Part shown: positions 3,001 through 54,977 of the stretch, in pieces
Position numbering within the stretch: the stretch's first letter is position 1
How the letters are laid out: the number at the start of each line of letters is the position of its first letter
Virus record (IMG/VR): IMGVR_UViG_3300042691_032784
Coordinates: 17,153-81,152 of that record
Direction: 5' to 3' (one strand)
DNA from: a virus
Length of the DNA: 64,000 nt
Program-made: the position numbers and the translations under genes
Notes under the pieces: model-generated
What the model was told of the DNA's origin: nothing
Databases searched by the model: none
Seen by the model: only the letters and a program-made list of their open reading frames with translations

Positions 3001-6000
3001 ATTATTAATAAAAGACTTAAAGATTTACGAAATGAATTAGGTAGTAAAACTGCTATTTTAGATAAAAATAAAGCTTTAAGATTAAATACAGCTGAAAATA
3101 TTCAAAAAGAAATTGATATTTTACAAGTTAAAATATATGCTTTTGTATCTCAACGTAATATATTTTTATCTAATAATTTATTGAATATGGATATAGAAAA
3201 TTCTATATTAGAAAATAATATTTTAGATATTCATTTTTCTGTATTAAATAATCCTGCTAAAGAAGTACAAAAAGCTAGAATTAATCCATTAGGTTTTGGT
3301 AATTTACCATCTTTAGTTAATAAAGTATCTAAAAATATTAATAAAACTACTTTTAGTCCTTTTAATGATAACTACCAAAGTTATAAATATACAAATGCTA
3401 GGGCTGGTAAAAATGCAGTAGGTTTATTTTCATTAGATAGTGTTTTTAATGCAGTATTACAATATATTGAAGGTAATGTTAATTTTTATAAAACTACTAA
3501 AGAAGGTATTGAAATTGATTATAATTTAAATATAGCAGGATATAATAATGTTAATTTAAATAATCCTAATAGTAGTGTACCAGGAAAATATAAATCTGAT
3601 GTTATTTCTGCTTTTCAATCAGCCGCATTAGATAATGAAAAAGAACAATTATTAGGTAAATTAAATATAAATAGTAATACTTTTGATACTATTAGAGCTA
3701 TGTCTTTAATGGGATTTGATGAAAATATTATTATTGCTTTTATAAATCAACCTATAATTATAGAGTATTTTAATAAAGCTATTGAAATTCCTAGTTTTAA
3801 TGAAAATTTTAAAATATTATTAAAGAAAACTTCATTAGAAAAAATGTTTAATAATATTAAAGATGGAAATATAGATACTGAATATCAAAAAGCTGTATTA
3901 TATTATTTTAATGATTTAAGTAATAAAGGTGCTATATTAAAACAAATACAAAGTACTATTAATTCAGATAGTAGCGGTATTGGTAAAAATTTCTTTTATT
4001 CATTAACTAAAGGAGACCAAATTTTAACATTACCTAAATATGATAGTGATATTAGAAATATTAGTAAATTAATTGGAGATTATTCTACTTCCCCTTTAGA
4101 AGATAGTGTTGATTACAAAGGTACTTATATTAAACCTAATAGTATTAGTGGTTTTGCTTCTACTTTTGGAGTATTAACTAATAATAAATTATGGAATAAT
4201 TTTTATCTTTATAATAAAGGTAAAATTAGAGCTATATTTACAGCAATAATAGAAAGTCAAAATGAAACTTATAATACTATTCAGAAACAAGCTGATGCAC
4301 TTAATAGAGTTACTAATTCTTTTAAATCTTTCTTAAGTTCCAACACATTCCATCTATGGGGAAAAGACACACAAACTGTAAATGATTTAAGATATAATTT
4401 ATTATATGATACTGAAACTAATATGAGTTTAGGTTCTATAATTAATAATTTAACTCAAAAAGATAAACCTTTTACTAATCCATTATTAGATAGATTACAA
4501 ATAGGTAGAAATAATGTTACTAATACCTTTTTAGGTAGAATACCTACTGTTATTAATTATTATAATGCAGGAAGTATTGAAATGAATGAAGAAATTATTA
4601 TTAATAGTATTATTGATATGTTAGTTAATAATACTTATTTAGGTGTATATAATAATAAAAATTATACTACTCGTAATTTAGCAGAAGATTTAATAGCTTA
4701 TCAAATGATTACTAGTGGTATACAACAATCTAATAATTTTATTAAATTTATACCTATTGAGTATTTAAAAAATATAGGATATTATAATAATATGATTGCT
4801 AATTATCAATTATTTACTAATGAAGATTTTGTAAATAGTGTATCAGAAGCATTTTATACTCAATATATTCAACATAATCCTGATGAATTTTATAATGAAG
4901 AGATAGCTAAAAATTATGAAGTAGTTGATGGAAAATTATTTAGTAATGGTACTATTAAAAGACCTTTAGTAGTTTTATCTGGTTTAATGCCTAATAGTTA
5001 TAGAATTTTTAAATATAATAAAGATATTAAAGATTTTGTTGAATTAGACACTTTAGGATATAAAGGATTACAAGAGTATGATATGTGGTCTAGTTTCGCT
5101 GGTAAAAGTACTGTTTATATTCAACAAGTAAATAATAATATTGATGTATTAAATAAATCTAATTTACCTGTATTTATTAATAATAAATTTAAAGAACCTA
5201 ATACAGAATATATTCCGGATGAAAAAAATATTAATGATTTTCTTTCATTAGATAGAGATACTGAACAAGATAATTCTCCTTTAGTATATAATACTAATAC
5301 TTCTGATTTAAGTAAAAAATATTATTTAACTGATACATCTTTACCTATTGCAGAAAAATATAAACATATTTTACGTAAAATTAGAAAAAATTCTGATAAT
5401 ACTATTTTATCTTATTTTGCAGGTAAAGTTTCTGAAATAATACCAGTATTAAATGATATACCTTTATATGTAGATACTAATTTACAAGCTAAGGGTAGAT
5501 TATATAAAAGTAAAGTATTTGGTGAACCTTATCAAATTAGAATTAATCCTAATAAGATAAAAACAGAAGAAGAATTACAAAGAGTTTTATTAGAAGAAAT
5601 AGTTCATGCTATTACTGCTATGGAAGTTGATAAAGGTAACTCTACTTTTATTAAAAATTTAGAATTATTAAGACAAGATGCTATTAAATTTGCTAAATCT
5701 AAATATGGAGAAGGTATAATTGATATAGTTAATGATAAAGTAAAAACTAAAAAACCTTTAATTACTGGTACTGAAAGTAATATTATTTATAATTTAAGTA
5801 ATTTACAAGAATTTATAGCAGCTTCTATAAATAATGTAGAATTTCAGAAGTTTTTAAATAGTATTAATGTTTCTGATAAAACTAAATCATTATGGAAAAG
5901 ATTAATAGATGCTATTACATCATTATTAGAAAGTTTAGGAGTTAAAAAAGATAGTAATTTATCAGTAGCTTTACATGAAATTATTAATTTATTTGATAAT

Positions 6001-9000
6001 GTAATAAAACCTACTATATATAGTAATTTTAATAAACCTAAATTTGTAAGAACTGTAGAGTATCTTAATAATAAATTTAATTTAGTTAATAATGAAGGTA
6101 TTTTAATTCAAAAAGCTAATGCTGAACAAATTGTTAATTTTATTAATAATAATATCGTAAATGTAATAGCAAAAGAACAAAATGGTACTGTTATAATTGA
6201 ACCTAATAGATTAATTGATTATTCTTTTGATTCTAATTATGAAACTGAATATGAAATTATTGAATCTACTCCTGTTAATTTTCCTTCTTATAAACAAGCA
6301 TTAGAATTAAGAGTTAAAAAATTAAGAACTGCTATTAAAAAAGCAAAAGATGAAGATAATTTTGTTAGAGTAAGTCAATTAGACGAAGTCTATAAAAAAG
6401 ATAAAGATTTATTAAGTCGTATTGATGATATTAATTTTTTAGGAGATATTGCAGATAAAGGTGAACAAGATTTACAAGTAGTTAATGATATGTTAAAAAG
6501 ACCTTTAACTTCTGAAGATATTGTTTATGCTAGAAGTATTATTAATTTTTGGAAAAATTCTAAAGAGTTATTATTTAATGATATTGCTAAAAAATCTAAA
6601 ATATTAGTAGAAGCTTTTACTGATTTAGAAGTAGAAGCAGGATTTTTAGCTGATGAATTATTAAGAATTGAGAAAGAATTTTTACAAGAATTTGTTAAAA
6701 AATATATAGGTAAAGAAACTGATATAGATAAAATATTTGAAGATTATAAAGATATTAATTTTTTACAATCTAATTTTAGAGATATTAGTACTTATGATAA
6801 TGAAATTTTAACTTCTATTTGGAGTGCTGTTAAACAAGCTAATATTAATGCTCAAGATGAATTTAATCAAAAATTAGAAGGTTTTGATAAATTATTAGAT
6901 AAAGTACTACCTATATTAAAATCTTTTGGTAATAAAGAATTATTTGAAGTTTTTAGACAAAAGAAAACTAATGGTAAGTTAACTGGACATTTAGTTAATC
7001 CTTATTCTAATTTATTTTATAAAGATAAAAATAAAGTTATTAGTAATTTAATTAAAGATAATAAATTTGAAAATTATATTAATTTAACTAATTTTATTAA
7101 AACTGTTGGAGAAAATACTAATTTAAGTTTAATTTTTCCTGCTAATGGTGAAATAACTGATGAGGTTATTAAAGCAAGAGAAGAATTAAAAAATAAATTA
7201 GGTCAAGGTGCTTATAATCTTTATATTAAAAAACAAGAAAAAAGATTAAAATCTTATCAAGAACATAAAGATGGTTATATTGAAGTATTATTAGATAGAT
7301 ATAATTTAAAAGATAGAGAAGATATTTTAAATAATGAAGAAGCTAAAAGAAAATATGAAAATTGGCAACTAGCTAATAGTCCATATGAATTAGAAAAACA
7401 TTCATTTAATAAAATTAATAATAGATTAAGTAATTTTACTGATTTTCAATCTCATAAATTTTATGAAATTATACCTATTAAAGAAGATAAAACAATTAAT
7501 TATTTTGATAGTAATTTTGATATTATTAGTAATAATAATGATTTATATGAATTTTATTCTTTTATTGAAAGTACTTTTGATGACCTTAGAAAGTTTGTTC
7601 CTGATGAACAACAAAAAGCTTTAGCTTATGGTGGTTTACCTTATATTGAAAAGACTTTAATAGAGATGTTTAATGAAAGAGGTATGCATTTAGGTTATAA
7701 ACCTATTTATGATGCTTTTATTGAATCTATGCAAAGTTCATTTTCTGATAATACTAATGCTGTTCTTGACCCTGTTACCGGACAACCTGAACAAGATATG
7801 AGAATACCTATTATTAAAGATAATTATCAATTTGTTAAAGATTATATTAATAAAAGAACTATTGAATATGTATCTATTAATAAAAAACAACCTAGTGTTG
7901 AATATATACAAGAATTTGAAGAAGATGCAGTTCATGAATACTCTCAAAAGAAATCTTTTGATTTAGGTAAAGTAGTTAAATCTTATACTGCTTTAGTATT
8001 AGCTCATAAACATAAAGCTAAAATTGAAGATAGTATTAAAATTGCTAATACTGTAATAGATTCTTATAAAGAATCTTATTATAGACCTGATGGTATACCA
8101 ATTACTAATAAAAGTGGTATTATTATGAAAAAACAAGAATCTGAATCTTTTCTTAAATTAAAAGAAGCTTTAGATAATTATACTAAAGCTAATATTTATA
8201 ATGATATTAGAGAAGAAGAAGGTAAAGGTAAAAAGATATTAACACCTACTGAAAAAGAAGAGAAGAAAGATTTAGAAAATAAATTAGAGCAATTACAAGA
8301 AGATTTAGCTAATAATGTTATAACACAAGAAGATTATGATACTACATTTAATTTAATTGTAGAACAATTAGCTAATCAAGGTAAAACTTTTATATATTCT
8401 AAAGCAGGTGATAATATGCTTAAATATTTACAACTTAAATTAATGGGTTGGAATGTATTAGGAGGTATTAGTAATATGGGATTTGGTTGGATTGCTAATT
8501 ATATTGAAGCTGCTGATGGTAGATTATATAGTAAACGTAATTTAAACTATGGTTATAAATTAGTGTTAAATAGTATTGGTAAAAATGTAAGTTTTAATTA
8601 TAATACAGGATTATATAATTCTGAAACAGCCAATAAAATTAGAAGTGCTATGGATAAATGGGATGTATTAAAAGATGCTTCTAATGAATTATATACTAAT
8701 ACTACATCTAATAGTTTTAATAAAAGATTAAAATGGTTAGCTCCTTATAATATGCAACAACGTACTGAATATATAAATCAAGCACCTTTATTAATTGCTT
8801 TAGCTAAAGAAACTAAAGTTAATACAATTAAAGGAGAAGTTAGTATTTGGGATGCTATGGATAATGATTTTAATTGGAATACTGCTGAATATGGAGAAGC
8901 TCCAACTGAAGTTATTACTAAATTAAGACTTAAATTAGATCAAATAATTAAACGTAATCATGGTAATTATGACCCTTTATCTACTATTAATGCTAAAAGA

Positions 9001-9672
9001 ACTTTTTTAGGTAGAGCAGGATTACAATTTAGAACTTGGATGTTAGAAGCTATTGCAGTTAGAGCTGAAAAAGAAAGATTTGATGATATATTAGGAATTA
9101 CTGTAAAAGGTAGATATAGAAGTGTGGGTACTGTTTATAGTAATACTAATATAGGTAAATTTGCTTTAGAATTTTTTAAAGGTCTAATAAATAAATATAG
9201 TTTTGGTTTATATAAAAATGGTAATTTTGAAGGATTAGTAGATGGAGAAAATATTAAAGAAGTTGATGCTGCTAATATGAGAAAAGTTATTACTGAAGTT
9301 AGTATGGCTATTAATTTATATATTTTATTACTTCTTGCAGCAGGATTAAAAGATGATGATGATGAAAATAATGCAGCATTAAATGTATTAATGAATCAAG
9401 GTATTAGATTAAGAACAGATTTATTATTATATGTTAATCCTATGGAAGCAAGAAATTTAATTAGAGATATTATTCCTGCTACTGCAATTATTAAAGATAT
9501 TTGGGAATGGATTGAATCTGTTGGTACTTTAGTAATTGGAGAAGATGAAATTAAAGCTGGTGTACATAGTGGTAATAGTAAATTTGTTAAAGAAACTTTA
9601 CAAATGTTACCATTTGGAACTAAAGCATATTCATTATATAATTCAAGTACACAAGTATTTGAAAAACGATAA
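1..9672 (+). CDS. Giant virion-packaged RNA polymerase/cargo polyprotein (crAss-like), 5'-truncated by the window edge; RNAP core, zincin-like segment and long C-terminal cargo region
   Basis: Frame is open from base 1, so the ATG at 181 is internal. Catalytic GSDFDVDKLY (DxDxD) motif at ~2869-2898, preceded by GYRIPTQG as in the phi14:2 gp66 family. LLEEIVHA...LQEFIA zincin-like motif at ~5587-5820. Hydrophobic segment near the C-terminus. Confidence 0.9.
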   Translation, partial: LKYKNVFIQDGNTVKINKEFIKQFEKQYEAILNNPQLINRTKDWLESIGIVIPDIVQNNFMLYGMYRDGQLLTMHQHFDLSNGIFKNIKNRIVQFANDNKEVNPEVEYDINTLNVFSDSSITDLAKTVAKYRNDLFQDNFKNGNGDTVHSYVNNKYAIDRFFKLKDDNLSLQYLLDIPYSAGSIWFNNLIKTNDEGIRYLNKEGIMYKYFKYYTADSIKYQNNKLGKVIDTLSESQLEDFKLGLFLNRGLKVGKGNNKIPIMKVLYPTMSDKSNIFIFQVPRVEYKFPNGKLSDNDRLDLVKILFYPEIDRIKQYQLKKGNFNNKEYNKGGGRFISFPLLNDIKELWNEDGTLKEEVGTLAEYDVILTKQLSRILSNIIQEKRQVWKDAGIIKTNKKGEEYLKIDKDYKNEFGNNVDSILKNYVINTTIANLNFQQLFIGDPALFTKDANIKSDSSLINEVGQNIANSIITSDNQGKRLAMDNAGKVSIIAEENETLNWLVIDDVKMKSTASTYIESLFKGTNVVDKYNSIDASDAQEYTTLEEHLKVMFKAGKITEDNMNRILDIYNKTGKVELSDKNMILQPMKPVYGNNFLYNDIDTRLYVKSSSIPLIAELTKDTALDGLRLLMEGSSGTKIDRVAFASAVKVGQPANIPQVFTDNGNTFKLPKDWRKGLLLGIPREGHGIQQEVPYDEDKNEVNDGTQQSKLLFNNILDVEGFIHPETGESVNGRTLLESYNNNYKQLFFNKYDKLLKDLDFNTESGQIGNLSKLKNILVEEGLARNYNINDINSFSLDELALNFSVPIWLNNSENKISALLNSIVDNRIRKRKVRGKSFVLASQVGLGTIDSINENNIIKHPNWDGTLKASMEKDGTITYAEVLVPFKFWNSEGNSLKIQDFIKDGVIDINKIPEQLLTSFGYRIPTQGLNSMSTIKIVGFLPDSYEDIVIAPADFVIQMGSDFDVDKLYTHMYKSTYNEDTKSLEIISKKHLNKKNTIKNSIEIINKRLKDLRNELGSKTAILDKNKALRLNTAENIQKEIDILQVKIYAFVSQRNIFLSNNLLNMDIENSILENNILDIHFSVLNNPAKEVQKARINPLGFGNLPSLVNKVSKNINKTTFSPFNDNYQSYKYTNARAGKNAVGLFSLDSVFNAVLQYIEGNVNFYKTTKEGIEIDYNLNIAGYNNVNLNNPNSSVPGKYKSDVISAFQSAALDNEKEQLLGKLNINSNTFDTIRAMSLMGFDENIIIAFINQPIIIEYFNKAIEIPSFNENFKILLKKTSLEKMFNNIKDGNIDTEYQKAVLYYFNDLSNKGAILKQIQSTINSDSSGIGKNFFYSLTKGDQILTLPKYDSDIRNISKLIGDYSTSPLEDSVDYKGTYIKPNSISGFASTFGVLTNNKLWNNFYLYNKGKIRAIFTAIIESQNETYNTIQKQADALNRVTNSFKSFLSSNTFHLWGKDTQTVNDLRYNLLYDTETNMSLGSIINNLTQKDKPFTNPLLDRLQIGRNNVTNTFLGRIPTVINYYNAGSIEMNEEIIINSIIDMLVNNTYLGVYNNKNYTTRNLAEDLIAYQMITSGIQQSNNFIKFIPIEYLKNIGYYNNMIANYQLFTNEDFVNSVSEAFYTQYIQHNPDEFYNEEIAKNYEVVDGKLFSNGTIKRPLVVLSGLMPNSYRIFKYNKDIKDFVELDTLGYKGLQEYDMWSSFAGKSTVYIQQVNNNIDVLNKSNLPVFINNKFKEPNTEYIPDEKNINDFLSLDRDTEQDNSPLVYNTNTSDLSKKYYLTDTSLPIAEKYKHILRKIRKNSDNTILSYFAGKVSEIIPVLNDIPLYVDTNLQAKGRLYKSKVFGEPYQIRINPNKIKTEEELQRVLLEEIVHAITAMEVDKGNSTFIKNLELLRQDAIKFAKSKYGEGIIDIVNDKVKTKKPLITGTESNIIYNLSNLQEFIAASINNVEFQKFLNSINVSDKTKSLWKRLIDAITSLLESLGVKKDSNLSVALHEIINLFDNVIKPTIYSNFNKPKFVRTVEYLNNKFNLVNNEGILIQKANAEQIVNFINNNIVNVIAKEQNGTVIIEPNRLIDYSFDSNYETEYEIIESTPVNFPSYKQALELRVKKLRTAIKKAKDEDNFVRVSQLDEVYKKDKDLLSRIDDINFLGDIADKGEQDLQVVNDMLKRPLTSEDIVYARSIINFWKNSKELLFNDIAKKSKILVEAFTDLEVEAGFLADELLRIEKEFLQEFVKKYIGKETDIDKIFEDYKDINFLQSNFRDISTYDNEILTSIWSAVKQANINAQDEFNQKLEGFDKLLDKVLPILKSFGNKELFEVFRQKKTNGKLTGHLVNPYSNLFYKDKNKVISNLIKDNKFENYINLTNFIKTVGENTNLSLIFPANGEITDEVIKAREELKNKLGQGAYNLYIKKQEKRLKSYQEHKDGYIEVLLDRYNLKDREDILNNEEAKRKYENWQLANSPYELEKHSFNKINNRLSNFTDFQSHKFYEIIPIKEDKTINYFDSNFDIISNNNDLYEFYSFIESTFDDLRKFVPDEQQKALAYGGLPYIEKTLIEMFNERGMHLGYKPIYDAFIESMQSSFSDNTNAVLDPVTGQPEQDMRIPIIKDNYQFVKDYINKRTIEYVSINKKQPSVEYIQEFEEDAVHEYSQKKSFDLGKVVKSYTALVLAHKHKAKIEDSIKIANTVIDSYKESYYRPDGIPITNKSGIIMKKQESESFLKLKEALDNYTKANIYNDIREEEGKGKKILTPTEKEEKKDLENKLEQLQEDLANNVITQEDYDTTFNLIVEQLANQGKTFIYSKAGDNMLKYLQLKLMGWNVLGGISNMGFGWIANYIEAADGRLYSKRNLNYGYKLVLNSIGKNVSFNYNTGLYNSETANKIRSAMDKWDVLKDASNELYTNTTSNSFNKRLKWLAPYNMQQRTEYINQAPLLIALAKETKVNTIKGEVSIWDAMDNDFNWNTAEYGEAPTEVITKLRLKLDQIIKRNHGNYDPLSTINAKRTFLGRAGLQFRTWMLEAIAVRAEKERFDDILGITVKGRYRSVGTVYSNTNIGKFALEFFKGLINKYSFGLYKNGNFEGLVDGENIKEVDAANMRKVITEVSMAINLYILLLLAAGLKDDDDENNAALNVLMNQGIRLRTDLLLYVNPMEARNLIRDIIPATAIIKDIWEWIESVGTLVIGEDEIKAGVHSGNSKFVKETLQMLPFGTKAYSLYNSSTQVFEKR

Positions 9673-10662: not shown

Positions 10663-11202
10663 TTAATGTATTAAATATGATATAAAATTTTCTTTAGTTT
10701 TTAATGTAGGTAATATAATAAAATCATCTATAACTCTAATATAATAATTTCTTATATTTAAAGTATTAGCATTTATAGGATTATTATTAACTTCATCTAC
10801 TAATTCATTAGTAGAAGTTATAATAAGTGATTCAAAATAACTTTGAATTTCATCAAAATCTTTAGTAATACTAATATTATCTAATTTATATAATATACTT
10901 AAATAAGTTATTAATAAAATAAGTTTTTTATTATCTAATTTATTTTGTATATAATATTTTAATAATGTATTAATATTATGTTTACAATGATTTTGTATAA
11001 TTTCTTTATTCCATGAAACAAATAATCTTTCTGATATTTTAGTAATTTTTTCATCTAAAGTATCAGGTAAAATATTTACTAAATGGTTTGCAACATCAAC
11101 TATTTCTAAGGGGGAAAATTCATCAAGTAATTTTCTACCTTCAAATGTACTAGAATCTTCAAGACTTCTAATAATAATATTAAGTCTCTCTTGTCTTTCC
11201 AT
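10663..11202 (-). CDS. Hypothetical protein
   Basis: 179-aa ORF tightly packed in operon. Confidence 0.7.
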   Translation of the reverse strand: MERQERLNIIIRSLEDSSTFEGRKLLDEFSPLEIVDVANHLVNILPDTLDEKITKISERLFVSWNKEIIQNHCKHNINTLLKYYIQNKLDNKKLILLITYLSILYKLDNISITKDFDEIQSYFESLIITSTNELVDEVNNNPINANTLNIRNYYIRVIDDFIILPTLKTKENFISYLIH

Positions 11203-12227
11203 TATAATTTTAATAATTGATTAAATACATCTTGTCTAATAGTAGCATCTCCACTATTAAATGTATTTTTAAATTTAGCATCATTAGTACGATATTCTTT
11301 AACATTTTGAAAATAGCCAGTAATACCATTATACACTCCCCAAGCTGTACCTACTATATTTTCTTGTCCTATACCTTCATGGTAATAAGTAAGTGCTTTA
11401 TTTAATAGATTTTCCCCCTTAGAAGATAGTGTTTGTTTTGAATCTCTGACTAAACCTAATGCAGTTTCAATAATATCATAAGCAGTATCATCATTAACTT
11501 GCTTTTTACCTAATATACCAAAAGCTTCTTGATAAGCTAATGTATTTTGGTCTACAATACCTAGTATTTTTTTACTAAGTTCTAATTTAGTTTTAGCATT
11601 TTTAGTATGCATAATACTAACTTTAGTTTTGTTACCTCTTGTAGCAGCAGTTAATGTATTATTACAAACTACTCTTATTGGAGTAAACATAACTTGAATA
11701 CTACTAGTACCATCATGTGACATAGTTAATAATAAATATTTATCAATTAAATCTTTATTAATTACTAATTCTTCTGTTACTTTAGCAGTAATAAATATAA
11801 TTTCTCCATTACCTAATGCTCCTACTGTTTCATAAGATGCAAATTTACCAATAATACTATCCATAAAATCAAAAGCTTCATAATTTTGAATAATATTATA
11901 TTTTGCTCCTACTATTCCTAAGTACTGATTAGTATCATTTCTAACAGTTATAAATTTATCAGGAACTATAAATTCTTGTTTATAAATATTAGAATCTTTA
12001 AGTTTAACTCTTGAAATAGTATTATACTTTTTAGCATCATCAAAAGAAATATGTTTATTATCATGATAATAAATTTTTCTTTTTTCTACTTCAAAATCTA
12101 ATCCTCCTAATTTAATAGCTTCTTCAGAAGTCATAGCATCTACAACTTTACCTAAGCCATGCCATGGTACTTCTTTTTTACTAGCAAAACTAGCTCTATT
12201 ATTTATAATATTAAGATTGTGTGCCAT
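11202..12227 (-). CDS. DUF932/DUF945-family phage/plasmid-like protein
   Basis: PWHGLG, IIQNYEAFDF, SHDGTSS, TPIRVVCNNTL and GTAWGVYNG motifs. Confidence 0.85.
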   Translation of the reverse strand: MAHNLNIINNRASFASKKEVPWHGLGKVVDAMTSEEAIKLGGLDFEVEKRKIYYHDNKHISFDDAKKYNTISRVKLKDSNIYKQEFIVPDKFITVRNDTNQYLGIVGAKYNIIQNYEAFDFMDSIIGKFASYETVGALGNGEIIFITAKVTEELVINKDLIDKYLLLTMSHDGTSSIQVMFTPIRVVCNNTLTAATRGNKTKVSIMHTKNAKTKLELSKKILGIVDQNTLAYQEAFGILGKKQVNDDTAYDIIETALGLVRDSKQTLSSKGENLLNKALTYYHEGIGQENIVGTAWGVYNGITGYFQNVKEYRTNDAKFKNTFNSGDATIRQDVFNQLLKL

Positions 12228-17848: not shown

Positions 17849-18709
17849 TTAAAAGATATATCTTATTGTATTCCAAGCAATTAAAGAATTATGAACTTTA
17901 ATAAATTCATTAATAGCATCTCTTTTAATATTAACTTCATATCTTATATTAGTACCACCATATTGTGAAACTTTAGTTTCTTGTAAATTAGGAACCCATA
18001 GCAAGTTTTCCCCTTTAATATTTTTTTCTAAATTATAATAATGTTTAGCTTCATTATGAGTAAGAAATATAACTTCACATTTAACTTTATGTTTATATTC
18101 TTCTTTAACATAAATATCTAATAACATAAATAATTCAGCATAATGTTTTATCCAATTATTAAATAAAATAACAGGACTAAAATTAACATGAACATCATAT
18201 CCTGATTCAATAAAATCATTAATAGCTTTAATTCTATCAAGAATTTTAGCTGATTTAGGTTCAACTATATTAGCAATAAGTTGAGGCATTAAACTAAATC
18301 TAATTCTAATTTTATTATTAGGATTAAAAGTAAGAAGTTTTTTAGGAACTATTTTAGTAGCAAGTGTAGCTTTAGCTCTAGGATGTTGTTTAAAAAAAGT
18401 AAAAATTTTATACCAATCATGATGAGGTAAATGTAATGCAAAATCTTCATTACAACTTATATCATAAGTTATATATTTTTCATCAGTTTGATTAGGTTTA
18501 ATAATTTTAGTTTTTTTAGAATGTTTATCTATTGCTAATAATATATCATTAACATTATTATATAAAGTAACTCCTTTAGGAGTATTACGTTTCATATAAC
18601 AATATGAACATTCTAATAAACAACCAGTGGCAAAAGAAGGACTAATAAAATCACTACTTCTACCACTAGGTTTAATAGTTAATATTTTAAGATTATTATA
18701 AATTATCAT
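17849..18709 (-). CDS. Spore photoproduct lyase-like radical SAM protein
   Basis: GCLLECSYCY (CxxxCxxC), YDISCNEDF, IRIRFSLMP, VHVNFSPV, EVIFLTH. Confidence 0.85.
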   Translation of the reverse strand: MIIYNNLKILTIKPSGRSSDFISPSFATGCLLECSYCYMKRNTPKGVTLYNNVNDILLAIDKHSKKTKIIKPNQTDEKYITYDISCNEDFALHLPHHDWYKIFTFFKQHPRAKATLATKIVPKKLLTFNPNNKIRIRFSLMPQLIANIVEPKSAKILDRIKAINDFIESGYDVHVNFSPVILFNNWIKHYAELFMLLDIYVKEEYKHKVKCEVIFLTHNEAKHYYNLEKNIKGENLLWVPNLQETKVSQYGGTNIRYEVNIKRDAINEFIKVHNSLIAWNTIRYIF

Positions 18710-39240: not shown

Positions 39241-39646
39241 TGTTAGTATTATGTTTTGTGGTGTAGGTAAGTGGTTGATATTGAGTTAATAAGGGTTTAG
39301 GTGGTTTTTTGGGATTAATAGAATGAGTTAATGTATTATTAGAGTGATTAATATGGTTATTATTGGGTTTATGAGTGTGTGTAGGATTAGAGTTATGGTT
39401 GTTAGGATTAGGGAGATTTTGGTGTGAATTAGTAGGTAGATGAGTAGATGAATTATTATATGTTGTTATTACTATGAGTTATGGCAACTTAAGTAATTAT
39501 ATAAATAACGGTACATATAACTCAGGGTCTACGTGCTTATGCCTATGTCTTCTTTTACTCTTACAATCAACTCTAACACTACAACCCCATCTACTCCAAC
39601 ACCTAATCTCCCCTCTCCATTTTAACCAATAACTAATCAATCAACA
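39241..39646. other. Non-coding C-free tract (39241-39471) and G-free tract (39548-39646); candidate origin-associated element
   Basis: 231 nt without C, a 76-nt spacer, then 99 nt without G, read directly. Confidence 0.7.
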
Positions 39647-39777
39647 GTACTATGCCCATAATAAATCAAATTACCTAGTTAGTAATTTAATAATCAATCA
39701 ATAGTAATATAACCACAATATTCTACTGCCCAAACAATAGAATTTAATCAATCTTTAGTAATATATCAAACTTAATA

Positions 39778-40227: not shown

Positions 40228-40284
40228 TTTGATTATGTTTTAAATTATTTGTTTTATTAATACTTCGTTTACTTTTACAACCAG

Positions 40285-40318
40285 AAGCATACTCGCCACA
40301 TATGTAGCGAATATGCTT
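40285..40318 (-). other. 15-bp RNA stem-loop downstream of the 40982 gene (terminator or processing site)
   Basis: Minus strand AAGCATATTCGCTAC-ATAT-GTGGCGAGTATGCTT pairs fully with G.U wobbles; no U-tract. Confidence 0.6.
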
Positions 40319-40349
40319 GATTGTTATAGCCCGTACCTATTGTATGAGC

Positions 40350-40982
40350 TTATTTTTTGTTACCTTTTCCGGCAGGTTTACCAAAAGCTTCTGTTTCTAC
40401 TTCATCTTCTTCTTCAGCTTCAGAAGTATAACCTGCAAAAGGATTAGGTTGAGCAACAGGTTGAGCAACAGGTTGAGCAACGGCACCAAAAGAACTAATA
40501 CCCATAGATGCTAAAAAGCCTTTACCAATGGTATTAGCAATAGCTAAACGAGTTAGTTCCATATCAGTCAATGGAATATCCATAAAACCTTCAATACGTT
40601 GTCCGTCTTGTTGATAAGCAACTCTATCACCAATCTTTACTTTACCACTCAATTCATGAGTAGTAGTAGTAATAGCAGGATGTTTTTCATCGATAATATA
40701 AGTATCGCCTGCTTTATGATAAGAGATTTCAGTAGTTGCAATAGCACCTCTACAAGCATGTAATTCAGCTGTAAATTGAGGGTCTTCAACACTCACAACA
40801 CCAATAGCTCTACCGCTGTTTTGAAGAGAGATAAGAGCTTGTTGAGGATTAACAACAATATCCGGATGTCTAGTAACCATACCATTAGTAACTTGGTCAA
40901 CTGCAAAAATAACAACAGGACGTTTAACTTTAGTGTTCATAGGAATGATACGAACTCCATTAATTCTAAATTGTGTTTTCAT
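40350..40982 (-). CDS. Hypothetical protein, first gene of the leftward block, with AQPV repeats and acidic tail
   Basis: Likely start MKTQFRING at 40982; 12-bp repeat x3 at 40446-40481. Confidence 0.7.
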   Translation of the reverse strand: MKTQFRINGVRIIPMNTKVKRPVVIFAVDQVTNGMVTRHPDIVVNPQQALISLQNSGRAIGVVSVEDPQFTAELHACRGAIATTEISYHKAGDTYIIDEKHPAITTTTHELSGKVKIGDRVAYQQDGQRIEGFMDIPLTDMELTRLAIANTIGKGFLASMGISSFGAVAQPVAQPVAQPNPFAGYTSEAEEEDEVETEAFGKPAGKGNKK

Positions 40983-41177
40983 AATAAAATATATAAATAA
41001 ATAATAAAAGATTTTAGTAGCCACAAGGACTACTACAGAACGTGGTTAATGCTTAAACAAACAAGCAAAGCTATGTGTTAACACAAAATCTAAGCGAGTA
41101 TTATTAATTTAAGCATTATGCTTTGTAGAGATTTAAGCAAAGTAGTACGGGTACTTCAAAACCTCCAAAACTTAGTA

Positions 41178-41403: not shown

Positions 41404-41716
41404 GTTATATTAGTGAGTTACTATACAGCATTAACATATTAACTACTATTACCATTATCACCACTATTAAAAATTTTGTTAATATTATGTTAAAATATTA
41501 TTAATTATTTGTATATTACATTTTATTTATTATATTAAGATTATATAATACTAATTATTAATCAATAAAACAAATATATATATATAATTTAACAAAAATT
41601 TAACAATTAAATATAGTCGATTTAAGAGATTTTTCCCCTTAAATGATAATGTTGTTGTCGAGTAAAAAATTATTAAATAGACGGTCTGAAAATGCCTATA
41701 TATCAATTATTATTCA

Positions 41717-41839: not shown

Positions 41840-42358
41840 ATGAAAGAAACAATTAATCCTATTAATGTTAAAGTTCCTCAAGAACTTATTAACTATCGTC
41901 TTCAAGCTAAATCTATATTAGCTTTTTGTACTAATCAAGCTTATGCTAATAATCAAAAATTTTCATATAGTATTGAATTTAAAAAAGGAGAACAAGCTAT
42001 CACTTATGATAATGTAAATTATATTAAACATTATTATACTTTTAGTTTAATACTTCTTAATAAAAATACAAGTATTATTGGTCAAAGAATTGAATTATAT
42101 GTAACACACTACCCAATTTCTATGGGGGAAAATAGTATTACTTTAGAAAAATTAGCATATAAAGATTTCTTTACTAATGCTATTGCTTCTCTTATTAATA
42201 ATACTTATGCTATGTATATAAATTCTTTACAAAAAGATTTAGTTAAACCAGAAGATGTAACTTCTGAAGATGCTGAAAGAGAAGCTGCTATTATTAAAAA
42301 TAGAATTGAATCAGGTATTACTGAAGAAGAAAAACCAAAACTTATTATAACTAAATAA
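41840..42358 (+). CDS. Hypothetical protein, first gene of the late block
   Basis: 172-aa ORF. Confidence 0.7.
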   Translation: MKETINPINVKVPQELINYRLQAKSILAFCTNQAYANNQKFSYSIEFKKGEQAITYDNVNYIKHYYTFSLILLNKNTSIIGQRIELYVTHYPISMGENSITLEKLAYKDFFTNAIASLINNTYAMYINSLQKDLVKPEDVTSEDAEREAAIIKNRIESGITEEEKPKLIITK

Positions 42359-43866: not shown

Positions 43867-44802
43867 ATGGAAAATATATTATTTAATGAAGCAGAACATA
43901 AATATTATGATACAGAAGGAAAAATATATACTTCTGTAACTACTCTTATAGGTCAATATACTAATACTTTTGATGAAGATTTTTGGGCTATTTATACTGC
44001 TTTAAAAGAAAAGAATTTTAAAGTTAAACCTCAACCTGAAGTTAGACAAATTTATGTAAATAATGTTTTATTTAAATCTGATGATTTAATTAGAGATGCT
44101 AGATTTAAAAATTGGTATGATGAAATTAAAGCTAGATGGAAAAGTATTAATTTTGAAGCTTGTGAAAGAGGAAATAATACTCATAATGAATTAGAATTAG
44201 GTATTAATCAAAGTAAAGGAGATTTGTTTGGTTTAACCAACAACAACATATCTTCTAAGGGGGATAAAGTTTTAGCTACACAACATGATTTAGATAATAC
44301 TATTATTAAATCTAAATATCCTGAAGTTTATATTAGACTTTCTGGATATATTAATAATGGTTTTTCTATATTTGCTGAAAAGAAAGTTTTTCTTAAAGAA
44401 TTTTTATTAGCAGGTATGATTGATGTTCCTTTAGTTAAAAATAAACATTTTTGTATTCTTGATTGGAAAACTAATAAAGATGAACTTAAAACTAAAGCTG
44501 GATATTATAAAAAGTCTAAAATTGGAAATACTTGGGTTAAAACAGATATATTTGTTGAAACAGGAGAATGTTTTAAGTTTCCTCTTAATCATCTTGAAGC
44601 TAGTAAATTTAATATTTATTCATTACAACTTAGTACTTATGCTTATATTCTTGAACAATGGGGATATATATTAGTTAATAATGGACTTGAAATAATACAT
44701 TTTCCTTTAGGTTCTTCACCTAAATTAATTAAAATTCCTTATTTAAAAAGAGAAGTAGAAATTATGTTAAATCACCATAAACAAAATATATTATGCAATT
44801 AG
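43867..44802 (+). CDS. PD-(D/E)xK nuclease
   Basis: F-E-EHKY, SVTTLI, GNNTH, AGMID...ILDWKTN, YSLQLSTY. Confidence 0.85.
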   Translation: MENILFNEAEHKYYDTEGKIYTSVTTLIGQYTNTFDEDFWAIYTALKEKNFKVKPQPEVRQIYVNNVLFKSDDLIRDARFKNWYDEIKARWKSINFEACERGNNTHNELELGINQSKGDLFGLTNNNISSKGDKVLATQHDLDNTIIKSKYPEVYIRLSGYINNGFSIFAEKKVFLKEFLLAGMIDVPLVKNKHFCILDWKTNKDELKTKAGYYKKSKIGNTWVKTDIFVETGECFKFPLNHLEASKFNIYSLQLSTYAYILEQWGYILVNNGLEIIHFPLGSSPKLIKIPYLKREVEIMLNHHKQNILCN

Positions 44803-45257
44803 GTTTATTTATAACACTAGATAATACATTAATTACTACTAGAAGTGGTAGAACTCATGCATTACATAGTGAAGATTGGAAATTTATTTCTGAAACTATT
44901 TATGCTATAAAAGATTATTATGATAAAGGTTATAAAATTTTTATTATTTGTAATCAATTTCAAATATCTCAAGGATTTACTCCTAAACTTGCTTTTGTTA
45001 AAAAATTAGAAGATATTATTGAAACTATTGAAAAAGATTTAAAACTTAAAAAAAATTCTATATCTTACGATTATAATATTGAAGAAGGTTTATATAGAAC
45101 TTTACCTAATCCTGGTATTATTTATGAACTAGCAACTGATTTTGAAATAGATGTAGTTAATTCTATTTTAATAGGAAGTTGTTATGCTGATAAACATACA
45201 GCTATTAATTCAGGAATAAAAAATTATATAACTGTTACTGATTTAGTTTATAATTAA
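44793..45257 (+). CDS. HAD IIIA (PNKP/GmhB-like) phosphatase homolog with degenerate active site
   Basis: FITLDNTLI, IICNQ, PNPG, IGSCYAD. Confidence 0.75.
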   Translation: MQLGLFITLDNTLITTRSGRTHALHSEDWKFISETIYAIKDYYDKGYKIFIICNQFQISQGFTPKLAFVKKLEDIIETIEKDLKLKKNSISYDYNIEEGLYRTLPNPGIIYELATDFEIDVVNSILIGSCYADKHTAINSGIKNYITVTDLVYN

Positions 45258-47557: not shown

Positions 47558-49861
47558 ATGATATTACCTCCACAAAAACTTTCTTATGCTGATAAAGTAA
47601 AAAGAAATGAAGTTACCGGAAAGAATAATATTGAAGAAACTGCTGATTATTATATTAGTCAATGTACTTGGGGAACTCAAACTACAGAAATTGCTAATTT
47701 ATATGCCGCTATTGAAGGTATTATTCATCCTAAAGAATATGAATATGTTCAAAATCCTTTTAACATAAAAAATAATGATGGTTCTTTACCTAATTATGGT
47801 GCTAGATTAAGAAATTATAATATACTTAAAGGTATTGCTAATTTATTAATGGGTGAATTTGGTAGAAGGAGTCATGAATATACTGTTTTTACTTTTAATC
47901 CTACTGATGAAGTAATATATAAAGATGGTTTATCTGTTTTAATTAAAGGTTATTATAGTCAACAAATTGCTAATGAATTAAAACAATTAGGATTAGATTT
48001 TGGACAAGAAGTTGTAGACCTTCCCCCCTTAGAAGAATATGTTCAAGGTTATAAAGATAAATATAATGATACTAGAGTTATATCAGGTCAAGATGCTATT
48101 GATTATATTAGATATAATTGTGATTTAGATAGTAGATATATTGATTTATATTGGGATTGGATTATAACTGGTAGAGCTTTTTCATTTAAAACTGTTAATC
48201 ATGATGATGTATATTGGGAACCTGTTCCTGCACATGAATTATTTATTCCTAATGAACAAGGTAGTAGATATGTAGAAGATAAATCTTTTGTAGTACGTCG
48301 TCAAATTATACCTATATTTAAAGTTGTTGATATGTTTAGGGGTAGAGTTCCTGAAGAATTAATTAATGATTTTGAAGCAGGAGTAGTAAAAGGATTTGAA
48401 GTAAATTTTACTGATATTCATGCTACTGGACGTAATGGTATTATTTCTTTACCTACTAATTATTTAAGTGCTAATTATACTAATGCTTTTGGTGTTAGTA
48501 ATTCTTCAGGTGTTGAATTATTTCATGTTCAATATAGAACTTGGAGAAAATATGGAGAACTTACTTATTTAGATGAATTAGGACAAGAAAGATTAATGGA
48601 AGTAGATGATACTTATATACTTGATAAAAAACTTGGTGATATTAGTATTGAATGGAAATATGAAAGTCAAATTATGGAAGTTTATAAGTGTCTTGATTAT
48701 TATCTTGATGCTAAACCATTAGAACCTAATAGAGCTGATTTAAATAGTAATGGTAGTCAAAAACTTTCTTATAATGGTATTATTGAAAGAAGTTTTACAG
48801 GTGAATTACAATCTATTATTAAAGAAGGATTACCTTATCAAATATTAGTTAATGTATTACATTATAATACAGAAAAATTAATTAATAAAAATAAAGATAA
48901 ATTAATGGTTATGCCTTATGGTTTAATCAATAAAAAAGGAGGAATGAATACTAAAAATACTATGTATCATGCTGATGCTACAAGTATTTTATGGGTTGAT
49001 GAAACTGCTCCTAATGCTTCTTTTGCTGCTCAAATGATTAAAGCGGTAGATATGGGTTTAGGTAATCATATTAGTACTACTATTGAAATAATGAAATTTA
49101 TTAAATCAGAATATTGGGAAGCTATTGGTATGAATGCTCAAAGATATGCTGATGTAGGTCAAAATGCAGGTAAAGCTGTAACAGAACAAGCTATTGTTCG
49201 TAGTGCTATTATTACATATGAACTTACTAGACAGTTTGATAAATTTATTGAAAAAGATTATGCAGGTTTATTAGATTATAGTAAAATAGCTTGGATTAAT
49301 GGTAAAAAAGCTAGATATATTAGAAGTGATGGTAGTTTAGCTTTTCTTAATATGACTGCTGAAGAAAGTTCTAATAGAACAGAAGCTAGTTTTGGAGTAT
49401 TTGTAAAAGATGCTTCACTTAATACAGAAGCTATTACTGCAATAAGACAACAAGCTATGAATCTTATTCAAAATAATGCACCTTATCAAAGTTTAAGTTC
49501 TATTTATAGTACTAATAATTTAAATAAACTTGATAAGATATTATCTAAGATGCAAGATTTAAAAAATCAGCAAGATATGTTGTTACAAAAACAACAAGAA
49601 GAAGCTCAAATAAAATTACAAGAACTTGTTAATGAAAATGATGAAAAGAATCGTGAATTAGAATATTATAAAATTGATACTGATTATGATAAAACAGTAG
49701 ATAGTGCTGAAATTAGAAGTAATAATAATAGTAGAAATGAAGAAAGACCTTCTAATGAAGTAGAAAGAAAATTAGCTGACCATAAAATTGCAAATGATAC
49801 TAGAAATGCTGATATAAAAGAAAAAGCTCTTAATATTAAAAAAAATAATAATAACAAATAA
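47558..49861 (+). CDS. Portal protein
   Basis: Follows TerL; 767 aa; LPPQKL start, YNILK...LMGE, GMNAQRY, coiled-coil C-terminus. Confidence 0.85.
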   Translation: MILPPQKLSYADKVKRNEVTGKNNIEETADYYISQCTWGTQTTEIANLYAAIEGIIHPKEYEYVQNPFNIKNNDGSLPNYGARLRNYNILKGIANLLMGEFGRRSHEYTVFTFNPTDEVIYKDGLSVLIKGYYSQQIANELKQLGLDFGQEVVDLPPLEEYVQGYKDKYNDTRVISGQDAIDYIRYNCDLDSRYIDLYWDWIITGRAFSFKTVNHDDVYWEPVPAHELFIPNEQGSRYVEDKSFVVRRQIIPIFKVVDMFRGRVPEELINDFEAGVVKGFEVNFTDIHATGRNGIISLPTNYLSANYTNAFGVSNSSGVELFHVQYRTWRKYGELTYLDELGQERLMEVDDTYILDKKLGDISIEWKYESQIMEVYKCLDYYLDAKPLEPNRADLNSNGSQKLSYNGIIERSFTGELQSIIKEGLPYQILVNVLHYNTEKLINKNKDKLMVMPYGLINKKGGMNTKNTMYHADATSILWVDETAPNASFAAQMIKAVDMGLGNHISTTIEIMKFIKSEYWEAIGMNAQRYADVGQNAGKAVTEQAIVRSAIITYELTRQFDKFIEKDYAGLLDYSKIAWINGKKARYIRSDGSLAFLNMTAEESSNRTEASFGVFVKDASLNTEAITAIRQQAMNLIQNNAPYQSLSSIYSTNNLNKLDKILSKMQDLKNQQDMLLQKQQEEAQIKLQELVNENDEKNRELEYYKIDTDYDKTVDSAEIRSNNNSRNEERPSNEVERKLADHKIANDTRNADIKEKALNIKKNNNNK

Positions 49862-49869
49862 TTAAAATT

Positions 49870-51180
49870 ATGGATGATAAACTAAAACCTATTGAAGGAC
49901 AAAGTGATAGCCCCATTCCTAGTCTTGGTGATATTATTGATGGTAATCCCATTATAAATACTCCACCTGCAACTCCACCTGCAACTCCACCTGCAAGTAA
50001 TAATAATACTCCTCCTAGTACTCCTCCTGATACAACACCTCCTTCTACGGGGGAAAATTTAGATACTTTTGAAGGAATAATTTCTGCTTTTACAAATGAA
50101 ACTATTTCAGATGATGCTAAAGGATTACGTTCTGAATTATTAAATATGTTTAAAGCAAGTAATATTGATAAACAAGGTAATCTTTTAAATGATGCTAATG
50201 AAGTATTATTTACAGCAGAACAAATAAAAGAGTATATTGAATCTGATAAATTACCTTTAAATGATAAAGGAGAATTAGTAAATTCTAAAGGAGAAGTTAT
50301 TAATATTACTCAGGAAGATTCTAGACCTATTGTAGATGTTATTAGAGAAGATTTAGGAGTACAATTAGGAATTGAATTACCTCAAGATTTTGTAGTAGAA
50401 GATAATTTAGAAGGAATTACTAAATTAGTGCAAGAAGCTATTAAAACTGCTAATACTAAAAGTATTGTTAATTTTTTAGATAGTAATCCTATTATGAAAG
50501 ATTTTTATCAACATTTAAAATTAGGATATAATCCTTCTGATTTTACTGCTGAAAATATTGATTATAAAAGTATTGATACTACTACATTAGATAATATTGC
50601 TAAATTAGATTTTATTAATAAATATTATAAAAAACAAGGAATTATAAATACTAGTAATTTACTTGAAGCTTTGAAAAAAGGAGGAGATGATGTAGTTAAT
50701 GCTGAATTAACAACTGCTCTTACTTATTTAGATAATAAACAAAAAGAAGAAAGAACTAATAGAGATAATCTTTTAAAACAACAAGCTTTAGATGAAGCTA
50801 AACAAGTAGAAGATTATTGGGATAAAGTTAATAATACTATTACTAAAGGTAAACTTGGTAATATTAATATTCCTATTAAAGAAAGACAAGCATTTTTTGA
50901 TTATTTATCAAGACCTATTGATAAAGAAGGTAATAGTGCTGTTATGAAAGATATTGAAAATGAAGATTTAGAATTTCAATTAATGACAGATTTTTTAAGA
51001 TTTAAAAAATATAATTTATCTGAATTAGTTGCTGTTCTTGCTAAAGAAAATAAAGTACTTAGTTTAAGAGATAAATTAGAAAAATCTAAAAAAGAATTTC
51101 AAACAGGAAAAGGTGTACCTACAACTGGAGGTTCTAATAGAGATACTAATGTACATCCTACTCTTGATACTATTGCTTAA
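49870..51180 (+). CDS. Putative capsid scaffolding protein
   Basis: Between portal and MCP; acidic, with TPPA repeats (12 bp x3 at 49960-49995) and coiled coil. Confidence 0.65.
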   Translation: MDDKLKPIEGQSDSPIPSLGDIIDGNPIINTPPATPPATPPASNNNTPPSTPPDTTPPSTGENLDTFEGIISAFTNETISDDAKGLRSELLNMFKASNIDKQGNLLNDANEVLFTAEQIKEYIESDKLPLNDKGELVNSKGEVINITQEDSRPIVDVIREDLGVQLGIELPQDFVVEDNLEGITKLVQEAIKTANTKSIVNFLDSNPIMKDFYQHLKLGYNPSDFTAENIDYKSIDTTTLDNIAKLDFINKYYKKQGIINTSNLLEALKKGGDDVVNAELTTALTYLDNKQKEERTNRDNLLKQQALDEAKQVEDYWDKVNNTITKGKLGNINIPIKERQAFFDYLSRPIDKEGNSAVMKDIENEDLEFQLMTDFLRFKKYNLSELVAVLAKENKVLSLRDKLEKSKKEFQTGKGVPTTGGSNRDTNVHPTLDTIA

Positions 51181-52785: not shown

Positions 52786-52816
52786 ACTTTTAATAATATA
52801 AAAATAAATAAATTTT

Positions 52817-53911: not shown

Positions 53912-53927
53912 ATTAATAATTAAATTA

Positions 53928-54977
53928 ATGACTACACAAGAGTTACATATAAATATAGATTTACTTTTACAAAAAGTTTCTAGTAATTGGAATAGTAATT
54001 TTTTGCCACAAGAAAAAGATATATTTATAAATAAAGAAATATTAAAATTTGTTAAACAACGTATTAATCCTTTAAGTAATATTAAATTAGAAGGAAGTTA
54101 TGATACAATTAAAAGAACTCAAGATATTAATAGTTTAACAAAAACTGTACCTCTAAATGTAATTGATTTAAATCAAAAGGAAGCTATTGTACAGCTTCCT
54201 TTTGATTTTTTATATTATGTTAGTGGTAGTTTAGATGTGTGTTGTAATTGTAATAATATTAATATTTCTACTTTTACTAAATATATTGCTACATTTTCCC
54301 CCATAGATGATAGTGTTGAGGATTTAAGTAGTGAAATATTAAGTCAATTAGACACTCTAATAGAAGGAGAAGATATTATAGATTTAGTTAATACTGTTAA
54401 TTTACCTGAAAATTATTTTCCTAGTGATAATTTACCTAATTATCGTAAATATTTTATTTATAATAATTTAATATTTAATAGTATTAAACGAAATCTTCCT
54501 ATTGGTTATGAAATTAAATATGATAAATTTAATAATAAATTTATTATTAGTTCTAATACTCCATTCGAAATAACTTTTTCTATGGGGGAAATAGATTTTG
54601 ACATAACATATACTCAAGAAATTAATAATACTTATAATTTAACTAATTCATTAGAATCTGAATTACGTATTATAGATGAAGAATTTAAAACTCATGTTAA
54701 AAAATCTTATTTATCAGGTAATAAAGATGAAAGTAGAATAGGTTATTTAAGAAATAATAGTATTATTTTACCAAAGTCACCTAATGTTATACTAGATACC
54801 TTAAATTTAACATATCGTTGTTATCCTAGTAAAGTAGATGTATTTTTACAATATAATTCAGAACTTACTGATGAAGCACTTGATGAAGTAATTAATAATG
54901 TTGCTCAAAATTTAAAAGGTGTTATTTCTGATGATGGTTATGAAAAATTTATTAGAGAAAATTTATTAATTGAATAA
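53928..54977 (+). CDS. Head-tail adaptor/ring protein
   Basis: MTTQELHI...LQKV-S...FLPQEKDIFINK N-terminus typical of crAss ring proteins. Confidence 0.65.
   Translation: MTTQELHINIDLLLQKVSSNWNSNFLPQEKDIFINKEILKFVKQRINPLSNIKLEGSYDTIKRTQDINSLTKTVPLNVIDLNQKEAIVQLPFDFLYYVSGSLDVCCNCNNINISTFTKYIATFSPIDDSVEDLSSEILSQLDTLIEGEDIIDLVNTVNLPENYFPSDNLPNYRKYFIYNNLIFNSIKRNLPIGYEIKYDKFNNKFIISSNTPFEITFSMGEIDFDITYTQEINNTYNLTNSLESELRIIDEEFKTHVKKSYLSGNKDESRIGYLRNNSIILPKSPNVILDTLNLTYRCYPSKVDVFLQYNSELTDEALDEVINNVAQNLKGVISDDGYEKFIRENLLIE

Follow-up and report, generated by a model that had tools for sequence, protein, structure and literature searches.

Promoters of the T7 group are asymmetric words of ~23-25 nt, with a lineage-specific upstream part, (C)TA(W) before a G run and many copies, and ColE1-type origins carry single-strand initiation (primosome assembly) signals on both strands, i.e., single-stranded DNA hairpins that are read by the host PriA and occur once per replicon. 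Among phages, nick-associated motifs have been described in T5, tf/LUZ24-like (TACTRTGMC) and phiKMV-like phages (CGACxxxxxCCTA/CTCCGG), their function being unknown according to the parts of these reports that deal with them (PMC3517423, PMC11780129, 10.1101/619015). As given there for tf, phiKMV-like phages and Rembedalsseter, such motifs are ~9-20 nt long, mostly genic at about the coding density, kept in conserved places and shifting in consensus between relatives, and one of them is bipartite with CCTA at the cut (PMC3517423, PMC11780129). Few viruses of the human gut are as abundant as the crAss-like phages, which are also found in lakes, and almost nothing is known of their replication and DNA handling. 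Here we describe a 25-nt, oriented DNA word that recurs at even distances along both strands of a phage genome represented by the IMG/VR record IMGVR_UViG_3300042691_032784. The window that we analysed is a stretch of 64,000 nucleotides (bases 17153-81152 of the 81,152-bp contig; G+C 23.7%), and the contig ends overlap by 69 bp (circular assembly). The source virus is, judged from its genes, a crAss-like phage, a lake-water relative of gut crAssphage.

Like the nick words of T5, tf-like and phiKMV-like phages, the lake word is phage-specific, oriented, over-represented, mostly genic, conserved in place and drifting in consensus. Those words, in the published accounts of them cited here, mark one strand and are unevenly spaced, whereas the lake word has 12 copies on the plus and 11 on the minus strand, evenly spaced and in register; they are also tied to physical interruptions, whereas the lake word is known from sequence alone. 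With T7-group promoters it shares the asymmetric form, the lineage-specific upstream part, the CTA(W) before a G run and the copy number, but its copies are intragenic, half of them antisense, and placed by distance and not by gene starts. Chi and KOPS are likewise strand-polar and genome-wide, and are read by a tracking enzyme; they have 5-8 nt, are specified by the host and enriched in its chromosome, whereas the lake word has 25 nt and is specific to phage lineages. The signals of ColE1-type origins resemble it in that one oriented signal per strand is found, the two close together, but the lake phage has ~11 such places per genome (hereafter stations) and no hairpin.

An initial annotation of the window had placed 18 copies of a motif in it. 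From these coordinates we derived the consensus CAACAC-TATCTT-CTA-W-GGGGG-AAAA (25 nt, oriented, non-palindromic), and a scan of the window with a position weight matrix (PWM) found 18 copies at the annotated positions with a clear gap in scores (at least 13.8, versus at most 9.0 for the next best). The string TCTAWGGGGRAA, with at most one mismatch, has 17 matches in the window, while 100 shuffles gave a mean of 0.97 and a maximum of 3 (0/100 reached 17); this control, together with the random placement trials given below, rejects a chance origin of the word. The whole genome (81,152 bp) holds 23 copies, 12 on the plus and 11 on the minus strand, and the 6-nt spacing within the word is fixed in 12 of the 23 aligned sites. 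The copies in the window are given here, the site being the T of TCTA (the initial annotation counted from the first base of the motif) and d the distance to the corresponding site of a related genome.

4087-4111 (site 4100), minus strand: word copy, antisense in the open reading frame (ORF) of the giant virion RNA polymerase, frame SPLE; PWM score 26.4; divergent pair with 4342-4366
4342-4366 (site 4353), plus strand: word copy, sense in the RNA polymerase ORF; PWM score 33.3
11094-11118 (site 11105), plus strand: antisense copy at residue 32 of ORF 10663-11202, paired convergently with 11410-11434 and present at the identical place in G001 (d=0)
11410-11434 (site 11423), minus strand: word copy, sense in the DUF932 gene; kept in G001 and G005 (d=0)
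20670-20694 (site 20681), plus strand: word copy whose G run contains one additional T, antisense to the DNA ligase gene; PWM score 29.0
20984-21008 (site 20997), minus strand: sense copy within the DNA ligase gene, paired convergently at 316 bp
29248-29272 (site 29259), plus strand: word copy, antisense, residue 27 of ORF 28853-29341; kept in G001 and G002
29444-29468 (site 29457), minus strand: sense copy at residue 734 of DNA polymerase A, paired convergently at 198 bp
36515-36539 (site 36528), minus strand: sense copy within ORF 36212-36610, paired divergently at 130 bp
36647-36671 (site 36658), plus strand: word copy, intergenic
41630-41654 (site 41643), minus strand: word copy, intergenic, where the two gene blocks diverge
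42108-42132 (site 42119), plus strand: sense copy within the gene that opens the plus-strand block, paired divergently at 476 bp
44243-44267 (site 44254), plus strand: unpaired word copy, sense in the exonuclease gene; same place in G001 (d=0)
48020-48044 (site 48033), minus strand: weaker word copy, antisense in the portal gene; PWM score 13.8; wide pair (2.0 kb) with 50033-50057; kept in G001 (d=0)
50033-50057 (site 50044), plus strand: word copy, sense in ORF 49870-51180; PWM score 44.8; kept in G001, G004 and G005
54294-54318 (site 54307), minus strand: word copy, antisense in ORF 53928-54977
54568-54592 (site 54579), plus strand: word copy, sense in ORF 53928-54977; divergent pair, 272 bp
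63789-63813 (site 63802), minus strand: word copy, antisense to the gene of tail ring protein 2; partner outside the window (genome position 132, plus strand)

The arrangement that had been read as inverted pairs comprises seven opposite-strand pairs in the window, with separations of 253, 318, 316, 198, 130, 476 and 272 bp; four of them (253, 318, 316 and 272 bp) do fall at the ~250-320 bp noted before, and both geometries are present (three convergent, +,-, and four divergent, -,+). Two predictions made for the rest of the genome were borne out: a weaker copy lies on the plus strand at genome position 132, across the contig junction and 261 bp on from the single copy at 63.8 kb, and further pairs exist outside the window, one tight (13931-/14258+) and one wide (5651-/7071+, 1.4 kb). 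In the permutation check that had been proposed for the pairing, 18 of the 23 copies have an opposite-strand partner within 600 bp, whereas 5000 random placements gave 3.6 on average and never more than 15, and none of the copies (0/23) has a same-strand partner within this distance. The stations are also more evenly spaced than expected by chance (coefficient of variation, CV, of the gaps 0.45 vs 0.90 for random placement, P=0.0012), and once the copies are split by gene orientation the regularity is stronger still: CV 0.29 for the 12 sense and 0.19 for the 11 antisense copies, with a largest gap of 9.6 kb. Each strand thus carries its own series with ~7 kb between copies, and it is the register of the sense and antisense series that appears as pairs.

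Partner arms are no more alike than those of non-partners (identity 0.538 vs 0.532, P=0.45, with the same outcome in four relatives), which suggests that each site is read on its own. Between partners lies coding sequence with nothing unusual in its composition, collinear in the orthologues, and a DNA contig from an independent sample spans sites 29259 and 29457, collinear with the window and without inversion. Scans of the window for tRNAs and Rfam families gave nothing overlapping the word, and contig ends of run X3 were not significantly close to sites (4 of 16 within 330 bp, ~2.8 expected). The view of the initial annotation, i.e., a periodic two-strand landmark in which every interval has one site on each strand, without the set geometry of a hairpin or an inversion, agrees with the even strand series, kept with different dialects in the relatives, with the presence of both orientations, with the unmatched arms and with separations in the relatives from 23 bp to ~2 kb. 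As to the uses it had suggested for such a landmark system (replication restart, protection from a translocating nuclease, looping or ejection checkpoints), none was established by the tests made here.

Copies are genic in 20 of 23 cases, in line with the coding fraction of 0.94, and antisense to genes in 11 of 23. Sense copies mostly translate as S-[KM]-G-E and antisense copies as S-P-[LI]-[ED], and this is achieved at a price in codons: GGG makes up only 22 of the 1276 glycine codons of the genome and CCC 15 of the 777 proline codons, yet 9 of the 22 and 9 of the 15, respectively, sit at word sites. Given that the G/C run forces the rarest codons at the sites, it is the DNA and not the protein that is under selection, and a protein motif is rejected by the same codon usage and by the presence of copies in both gene orientations. 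With two stations inside the single 15-kb RNA polymerase ORF, the copies are placed by distance and not by gene structure, and a DNA process that tracks along the molecule or is limited by processivity fits such gene-blind placement and the even spacing within each strand. No avoidance of G runs was seen elsewhere in the genome (25 of the 47 GGGG runs are outside sites). We consider that a strand-specific, evenly spaced word kept against codon preference in essential genes would be the footprint of an undescribed essential DNA transaction.

A query with the capsid protein retrieved 14 IMG/VR loci, and four complete or near-complete genomes among them (G001, G002, G004 and G005) were compared with the lake phage. 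Each has its own dialect of the word in the same architecture, with 22-28 copies: TCTATTGGGGAA with AACAAACC upstream in G001, TCTAAAGGCAAA in G002, TGA..GTTTTTCTATAGGGAAAGG in G004 and CGAATAAACTCTCT.CTAYGGGCAAG in G005. The core common to the five genomes is YTCTA-N-GG, while the upstream part is lineage-specific. Pairing recurs in G001 (14/23 copies, P=0.0002), G005 (12/22, P=0.0012) and G004 (13/27, P=0.004), and is weak in G002 (8/23, P=0.07); in all five genomes the stations are more evenly spaced than expected by chance, and both pair geometries occur in every module.

Gene order is collinear across the relatives, with protein identities of 50-87% to G001 and lower ones to the others, and sites could therefore be mapped through protein alignments. 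In G001, 17 of the 19 mappable genic sites have a same-orientation site within 150 bp, mostly within 20 bp, compared with 6/19 in G002, 4/17 in G004 and 4/17 in G005. The station near the C-terminus of the DNA polymerase occupies the same codon region in the lake genome, G001, G002 and G004 (d<=5), and in G005 it is 185 bp off. On the evidence of these alignments, some stations are ancient and others have moved while the spacing was kept. The drift of dialects around a shared core, combined with conserved places, suggests a reader that co-evolves with the phage. An exact 17-mer of the word gave 20 single hits, none repeated, across the genomes of 185,579 species (one genome each; exact matches only, with the host not identified), and as the 17-mer is repeated in none of these genomes, a Chi-like reader of the host is not favoured.

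The gene content places the virus among the crAss-like phages. Matches to crAss-type PHROGs were obtained for the large terminase, portal and major capsid protein, and matches to Crassvirus Pfam families for tail ring proteins 1 and 2, while GenBank phages gave no megablast match to the window and the closest GenBank relatives of the capsid protein, all Crassvirales, are at most 36% identical. The minus-strand gene block is devoted to replication (family A DNA polymerase, helicases, primase, ligase, RecT, ThyX, dNMP kinase) and the plus-strand block to packaging, capsid, tail and polymerase genes. One ORF of 5065 aa (window 1-9672, running off the left end of the window; genome 11627-26824) encodes the entire virion RNA polymerase, which has DFDVD at residue 2800 and matches that of phi14:2 (6VR4, E 4.9e-23). 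It is far longer than the 2180-aa phi14:2 enzyme, and this difference in length suggests that several virion proteins are fused in it. Two further genes encode enzymes that act on strand ends:

19996-21324, minus strand: ATP-dependent DNA ligase (PF01068, E 1.4e-14)
44793-45257, plus strand: polynucleotide 3'-phosphatase-like ORF (PF08645, E 1.8e-13), just upstream of the large terminase gene

The ligase has orthologues in G001, G002, G004, G005 and crAssphage, being kept in all word-bearing genomes examined, and no match in phi14:2 or crAss001; the 3'-phosphatase-like ORF has orthologues in all four lake relatives. The links of this putative strand-sealing enzyme and of this putative end-healing enzyme to the word are, on such distributions, circumstantial.

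A wider check covered BK010471, MT774394 and MT774393 (cr127_1), with the first 50 kb each of cr271_1 and cr127_1. Gut crAssphage (BK010471) has 31 copies of CATCCTC[TC]ACGGGG[GA]GT, 13 on the plus and 18 on the minus strand, with per-strand gap CVs of 0.43 and 0.31 and no close same-strand partner. Its word has the same core form as that of the lake phage (TCTACGGGG, the crAssphage core, is also found as a variant in the window) and likewise runs evenly through genes on both strands with lineage dialects, but only 12 of its 31 copies have an opposite partner within 600 bp (P=0.024), versus 18/23 in the lake genome, and it has no counterpart of the extra upstream box CAACAC. The first 50 kb of cr271_1 (Intestiviridae) contain 7 copies of TTCTTCTACGGGGGAG, and positions 1-50000 of cr127_1 (Crevaviridae) contain 8 copies of a nearly invariant 25-nt word, TGGCCACAAGGGCGAGAGGTGTTCC, with three opposite-strand pairs 169-560 bp apart, one of them within a giant ORF. 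Dialects are thus found in the lake lineage and in members of Intestiviridae and Crevaviridae. In phi14:2 no word is over-represented, and matches of the CCTTCTTC type are the antisense of Glu-Glu-Gly codons. The G-run word was not found in the first 100 kb of crAss001 (NC_049977), which gave only 5 generic matches. A different 9-mer, CTTCTGGAG, is present there in 27 copies (~2 expected) on both strands, its one-letter neighbours having 0-3 copies, with a moderately even sense series (CV 0.45, P=0.004), and may represent a further dialect, carried by the cultured crAss-like phage that has been studied best.

Genes for the virion RNA polymerase, terminase, portal and capsid are common to all compared phages. 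The lake lineage and crAssphage also have in common an SF1 helicase, SNF2, ligase, dNMP kinase, DUF932 protein, RecT and exonuclease, and these seven module genes have no match in phi14:2 or crAss001. The annotation of cr127_1 lists a helicase, an SNF2-type ATPase, a primase, a ligase and a dNMP kinase, while none of this replication module is shown in the first 50 kb of cr271_1. By this comparison of gene content, the word travels with one type of replication/recombination module in a sample of three or four lineages.

Taken together, the best explanation that we can offer, and we offer it tentatively, is that the copies are oriented start or entry sites (a nick or a primer), one series per strand, for the replication/recombination machinery of the phage. 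This reading fits best on account of the even spacing on each strand, the indifference to genes, the strict orientation and the tie to a replication module. We infer that a phage protein reads the word and that the event at it is a strand break or a start. Each copy would be an independent, oriented recognition site for a phage-encoded replication/recombination protein, which would open or start one strand at the junction between TA and the G run, i.e., by a site-specific nick or a primer. With one series per strand at ~7 kb spacing and the two in register, each station would launch a strand-specific process leftwards and rightwards; synthesis, unwinding or resection would run from the nick or primer in the direction of the word, and the strand ends would be healed by the phage 3'-phosphatase and sealed by the ligase.

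Several observations weigh against oriented start sites. The GC skew at third codon positions is flat across quartiles between stations, and without a sawtooth there is no trace of a leading/lagging asymmetry arising from them; bidirectional theta origins at the stations were rejected on the same grounds, a null result and not a disproof. No nickase or other candidate reader was found, most ORFs being without a family. Opposite-strand sites are just 23-57 bp apart in G005 and G004, where double nicking would make the duplex fragile, and the nick systems described so far, in the parts of the reports that treat them, mark one strand only and are not evenly spaced (PMC3517423, PMC11780129). No more than three or four lineages underlie the correlation with the module, phi14:2 lacks the word although it has a primase homologue, and crAss001 carries its dispersed 9-mer (27 copies) with no detectable ligase. 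A bolder version, to which we give rather little credence, holds that Crassvirales with the SF1-helicase/SNF2/ligase/RecT module copy their genome from ~11 fixed stations, where a phage protein would read the word of each strand and start (or nick and start) synthesis, the ~7-kb segments of both strands being joined by the phage ligase. If true, this would be site-programmed, two-strand discontinuous replication, a mode not described for any virus.

The copies could also be nick sites of the virion DNA without a replicative role, as in T5 and in the phiKMV-like and tf-like phages, except that both strands would be interrupted; the nicks would be introduced late and sealed early. We regard this as rather unlikely, even though the statistical portrait of the word is that of the known nick motifs (over-represented, genic, in conserved places, with a drifting consensus) and both the ligase and the 3'-phosphatase are conserved, because the known systems, as described in these sources, use one strand without even spacing, the regularity and the register of the two series would be left without a reason, and packaged DNA would break wherever opposite nicks lie close together.

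If the copies served the two-barrel virion RNA polymerase as promoters or as primer-forming transcription starts, other features of the word would be explained: its upstream box, CTA(W) for melting and G-run start recall a T7 promoter. Its 25-nt consensus is asymmetric, with a conserved core, a lineage-specific upstream part and the 6-nt spacing fixed in 12/23 copies, and the G004 core CTATAGGGA has the form of T7-group promoters. The genome encodes a suitable enzyme in the 5065-aa RNA polymerase (DFDVD, related to 6VR4), the unpaired copies lean towards sense (17 vs 7 over the five genomes, P=0.06) and the intergenic pairs are divergent. We nevertheless find this explanation unlikely, since 20/23 copies are intragenic and 11/23 antisense, two stations are in one 15-kb ORF, the word is present across all temporal modules, and phi14:2 and crAss001 have the polymerase and not the word. 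The convergent pair of G005 that is merely 23 bp apart is equally hard to accommodate, as is the lack of a T7-like polymerase in Pfam scans of nearly all ORFs of at least 100 aa (a six-frame search for PF00940 gave no match, though its control gave no signal either). RNA contigs pile up at 36880-37161, 39305-39765 and 40263-41155, away from the sites, a weak point, since the ends of transcripts are not visible in contigs. The early transcripts of phi14:2, which the virion polymerase makes, have no common upstream motif in the account of them consulted here, where the middle and late promoter motifs of crAss-like phages are described as -35/-10-like, mostly intergenic and sense (10.1101/2020.03.07.982082), and the only conserved phage motif of LUZ19 is, by the portion of the report concerned, that of nick sites unrelated to transcript abundance (PMC3604761).

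A translocating enzyme, e.g., a nuclease or helicase acting on broken phage DNA, might alternatively meet polar control words (Chi-, KOPS- or Ter-like) from either side within ~7 kb. Oriented, gene-independent words in one evenly spaced series per strand are what such an enzyme would need, and the genome encodes an SF1/RecD-like helicase, an exonuclease and RecT; yet 25 nt far exceeds the known length of Chi or KOPS, the dialects differ among close relatives, the 17-mer occurs at most once per cellular genome (by exact match only, with the host not identified) and the logic does not call for two series in register, all of which makes us doubt this possibility strongly. Less likely still, an architectural protein might bind the copies and loop, condense or checkpoint the genome in packaging or ejection. 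Even spacing and in-register pairs would suit anchors, and crAss-like virions are annotated with DNA-binding cargo and IHF-like ring proteins, but anchors require neither strict orientation nor the absence of close same-strand copies, pair separations vary 100-fold and the word tracks the replication and not the structural module. Finally, that paired copies are RNA or DNA stems (terminators, RNase III sites, cruciforms) or ends of invertible or mobile segments is largely refuted as a primary function and highly improbable, for although any sense/antisense pair could form a ~14-bp stem through the shared core, the arms are unmatched in all five genomes, unpaired copies and pairs of 1.4-2 kb exist, both geometries occur, and both the collinear coding sequence between partners and the spanning contig of another sample speak against a hairpin, an invertible segment or a mobile element of the miniature inverted-repeat transposable (MITE) or repetitive extragenic palindromic (REP) kind.

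Literature searches, including those with the crAssphage strings themselves, returned no such word described for crAss-like phages, and the string matches listed were unrelated (primers etc.). New here are a lineage whose strand series are tightly in register, the conservation of stations at codon level across dialects, the test of arm independence, the link to one replication module and a second, different word in crAss001. For oriented start sites and for the other readings alike, the ~23-31 known coordinates per genome provide a testable handle for nicks, primers, starts and bound proteins.

Some neighbouring genes and transcripts deserve mention in their own right. The exonuclease (43867-44802, phrog_298) is 31% identical to crAssphage gp83, a PD-(D/E)XK nuclease, and together with RecT it looks like an ordinary recombination pair; this gene and the 3'-phosphatase-like ORF occupy the place expected for the small terminase, directly upstream of the large one. 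The DUF932 protein (window 11202-12227) is among the best conserved non-structural proteins (34% identity to crAssphage gp33, E 2e-49), with no match in phi14:2 or crAss001 and no relative of solved structure, and no function was given for DUF932 in phage among the literature matches listed. A homologue of spore photoproduct lyase (window 17849-18709; PF20903, E 1.1e-22) has an orthologue in G001 and none in G002, G004 or G005.

The RNA contigs mentioned above came from 3 metatranscriptome runs of 2 studies and were deepest at 36880-37161 (depth 67-142). This stretch has no ORF of at least 100 aa and no Rfam or tRNA match, and by analogy with the intergenic regions of phi14:2 it may give rise to an abundant early non-coding RNA. 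Other over-represented 8-9-mers were seen across the relatives, i.e., CAGTAGGA and TAGGAGCA (12-13 copies in the lake phage), CTCCTACTG (10 in G001) and CATTAGGAG (12 in G004), and these may reflect the codons of repeated peptides.

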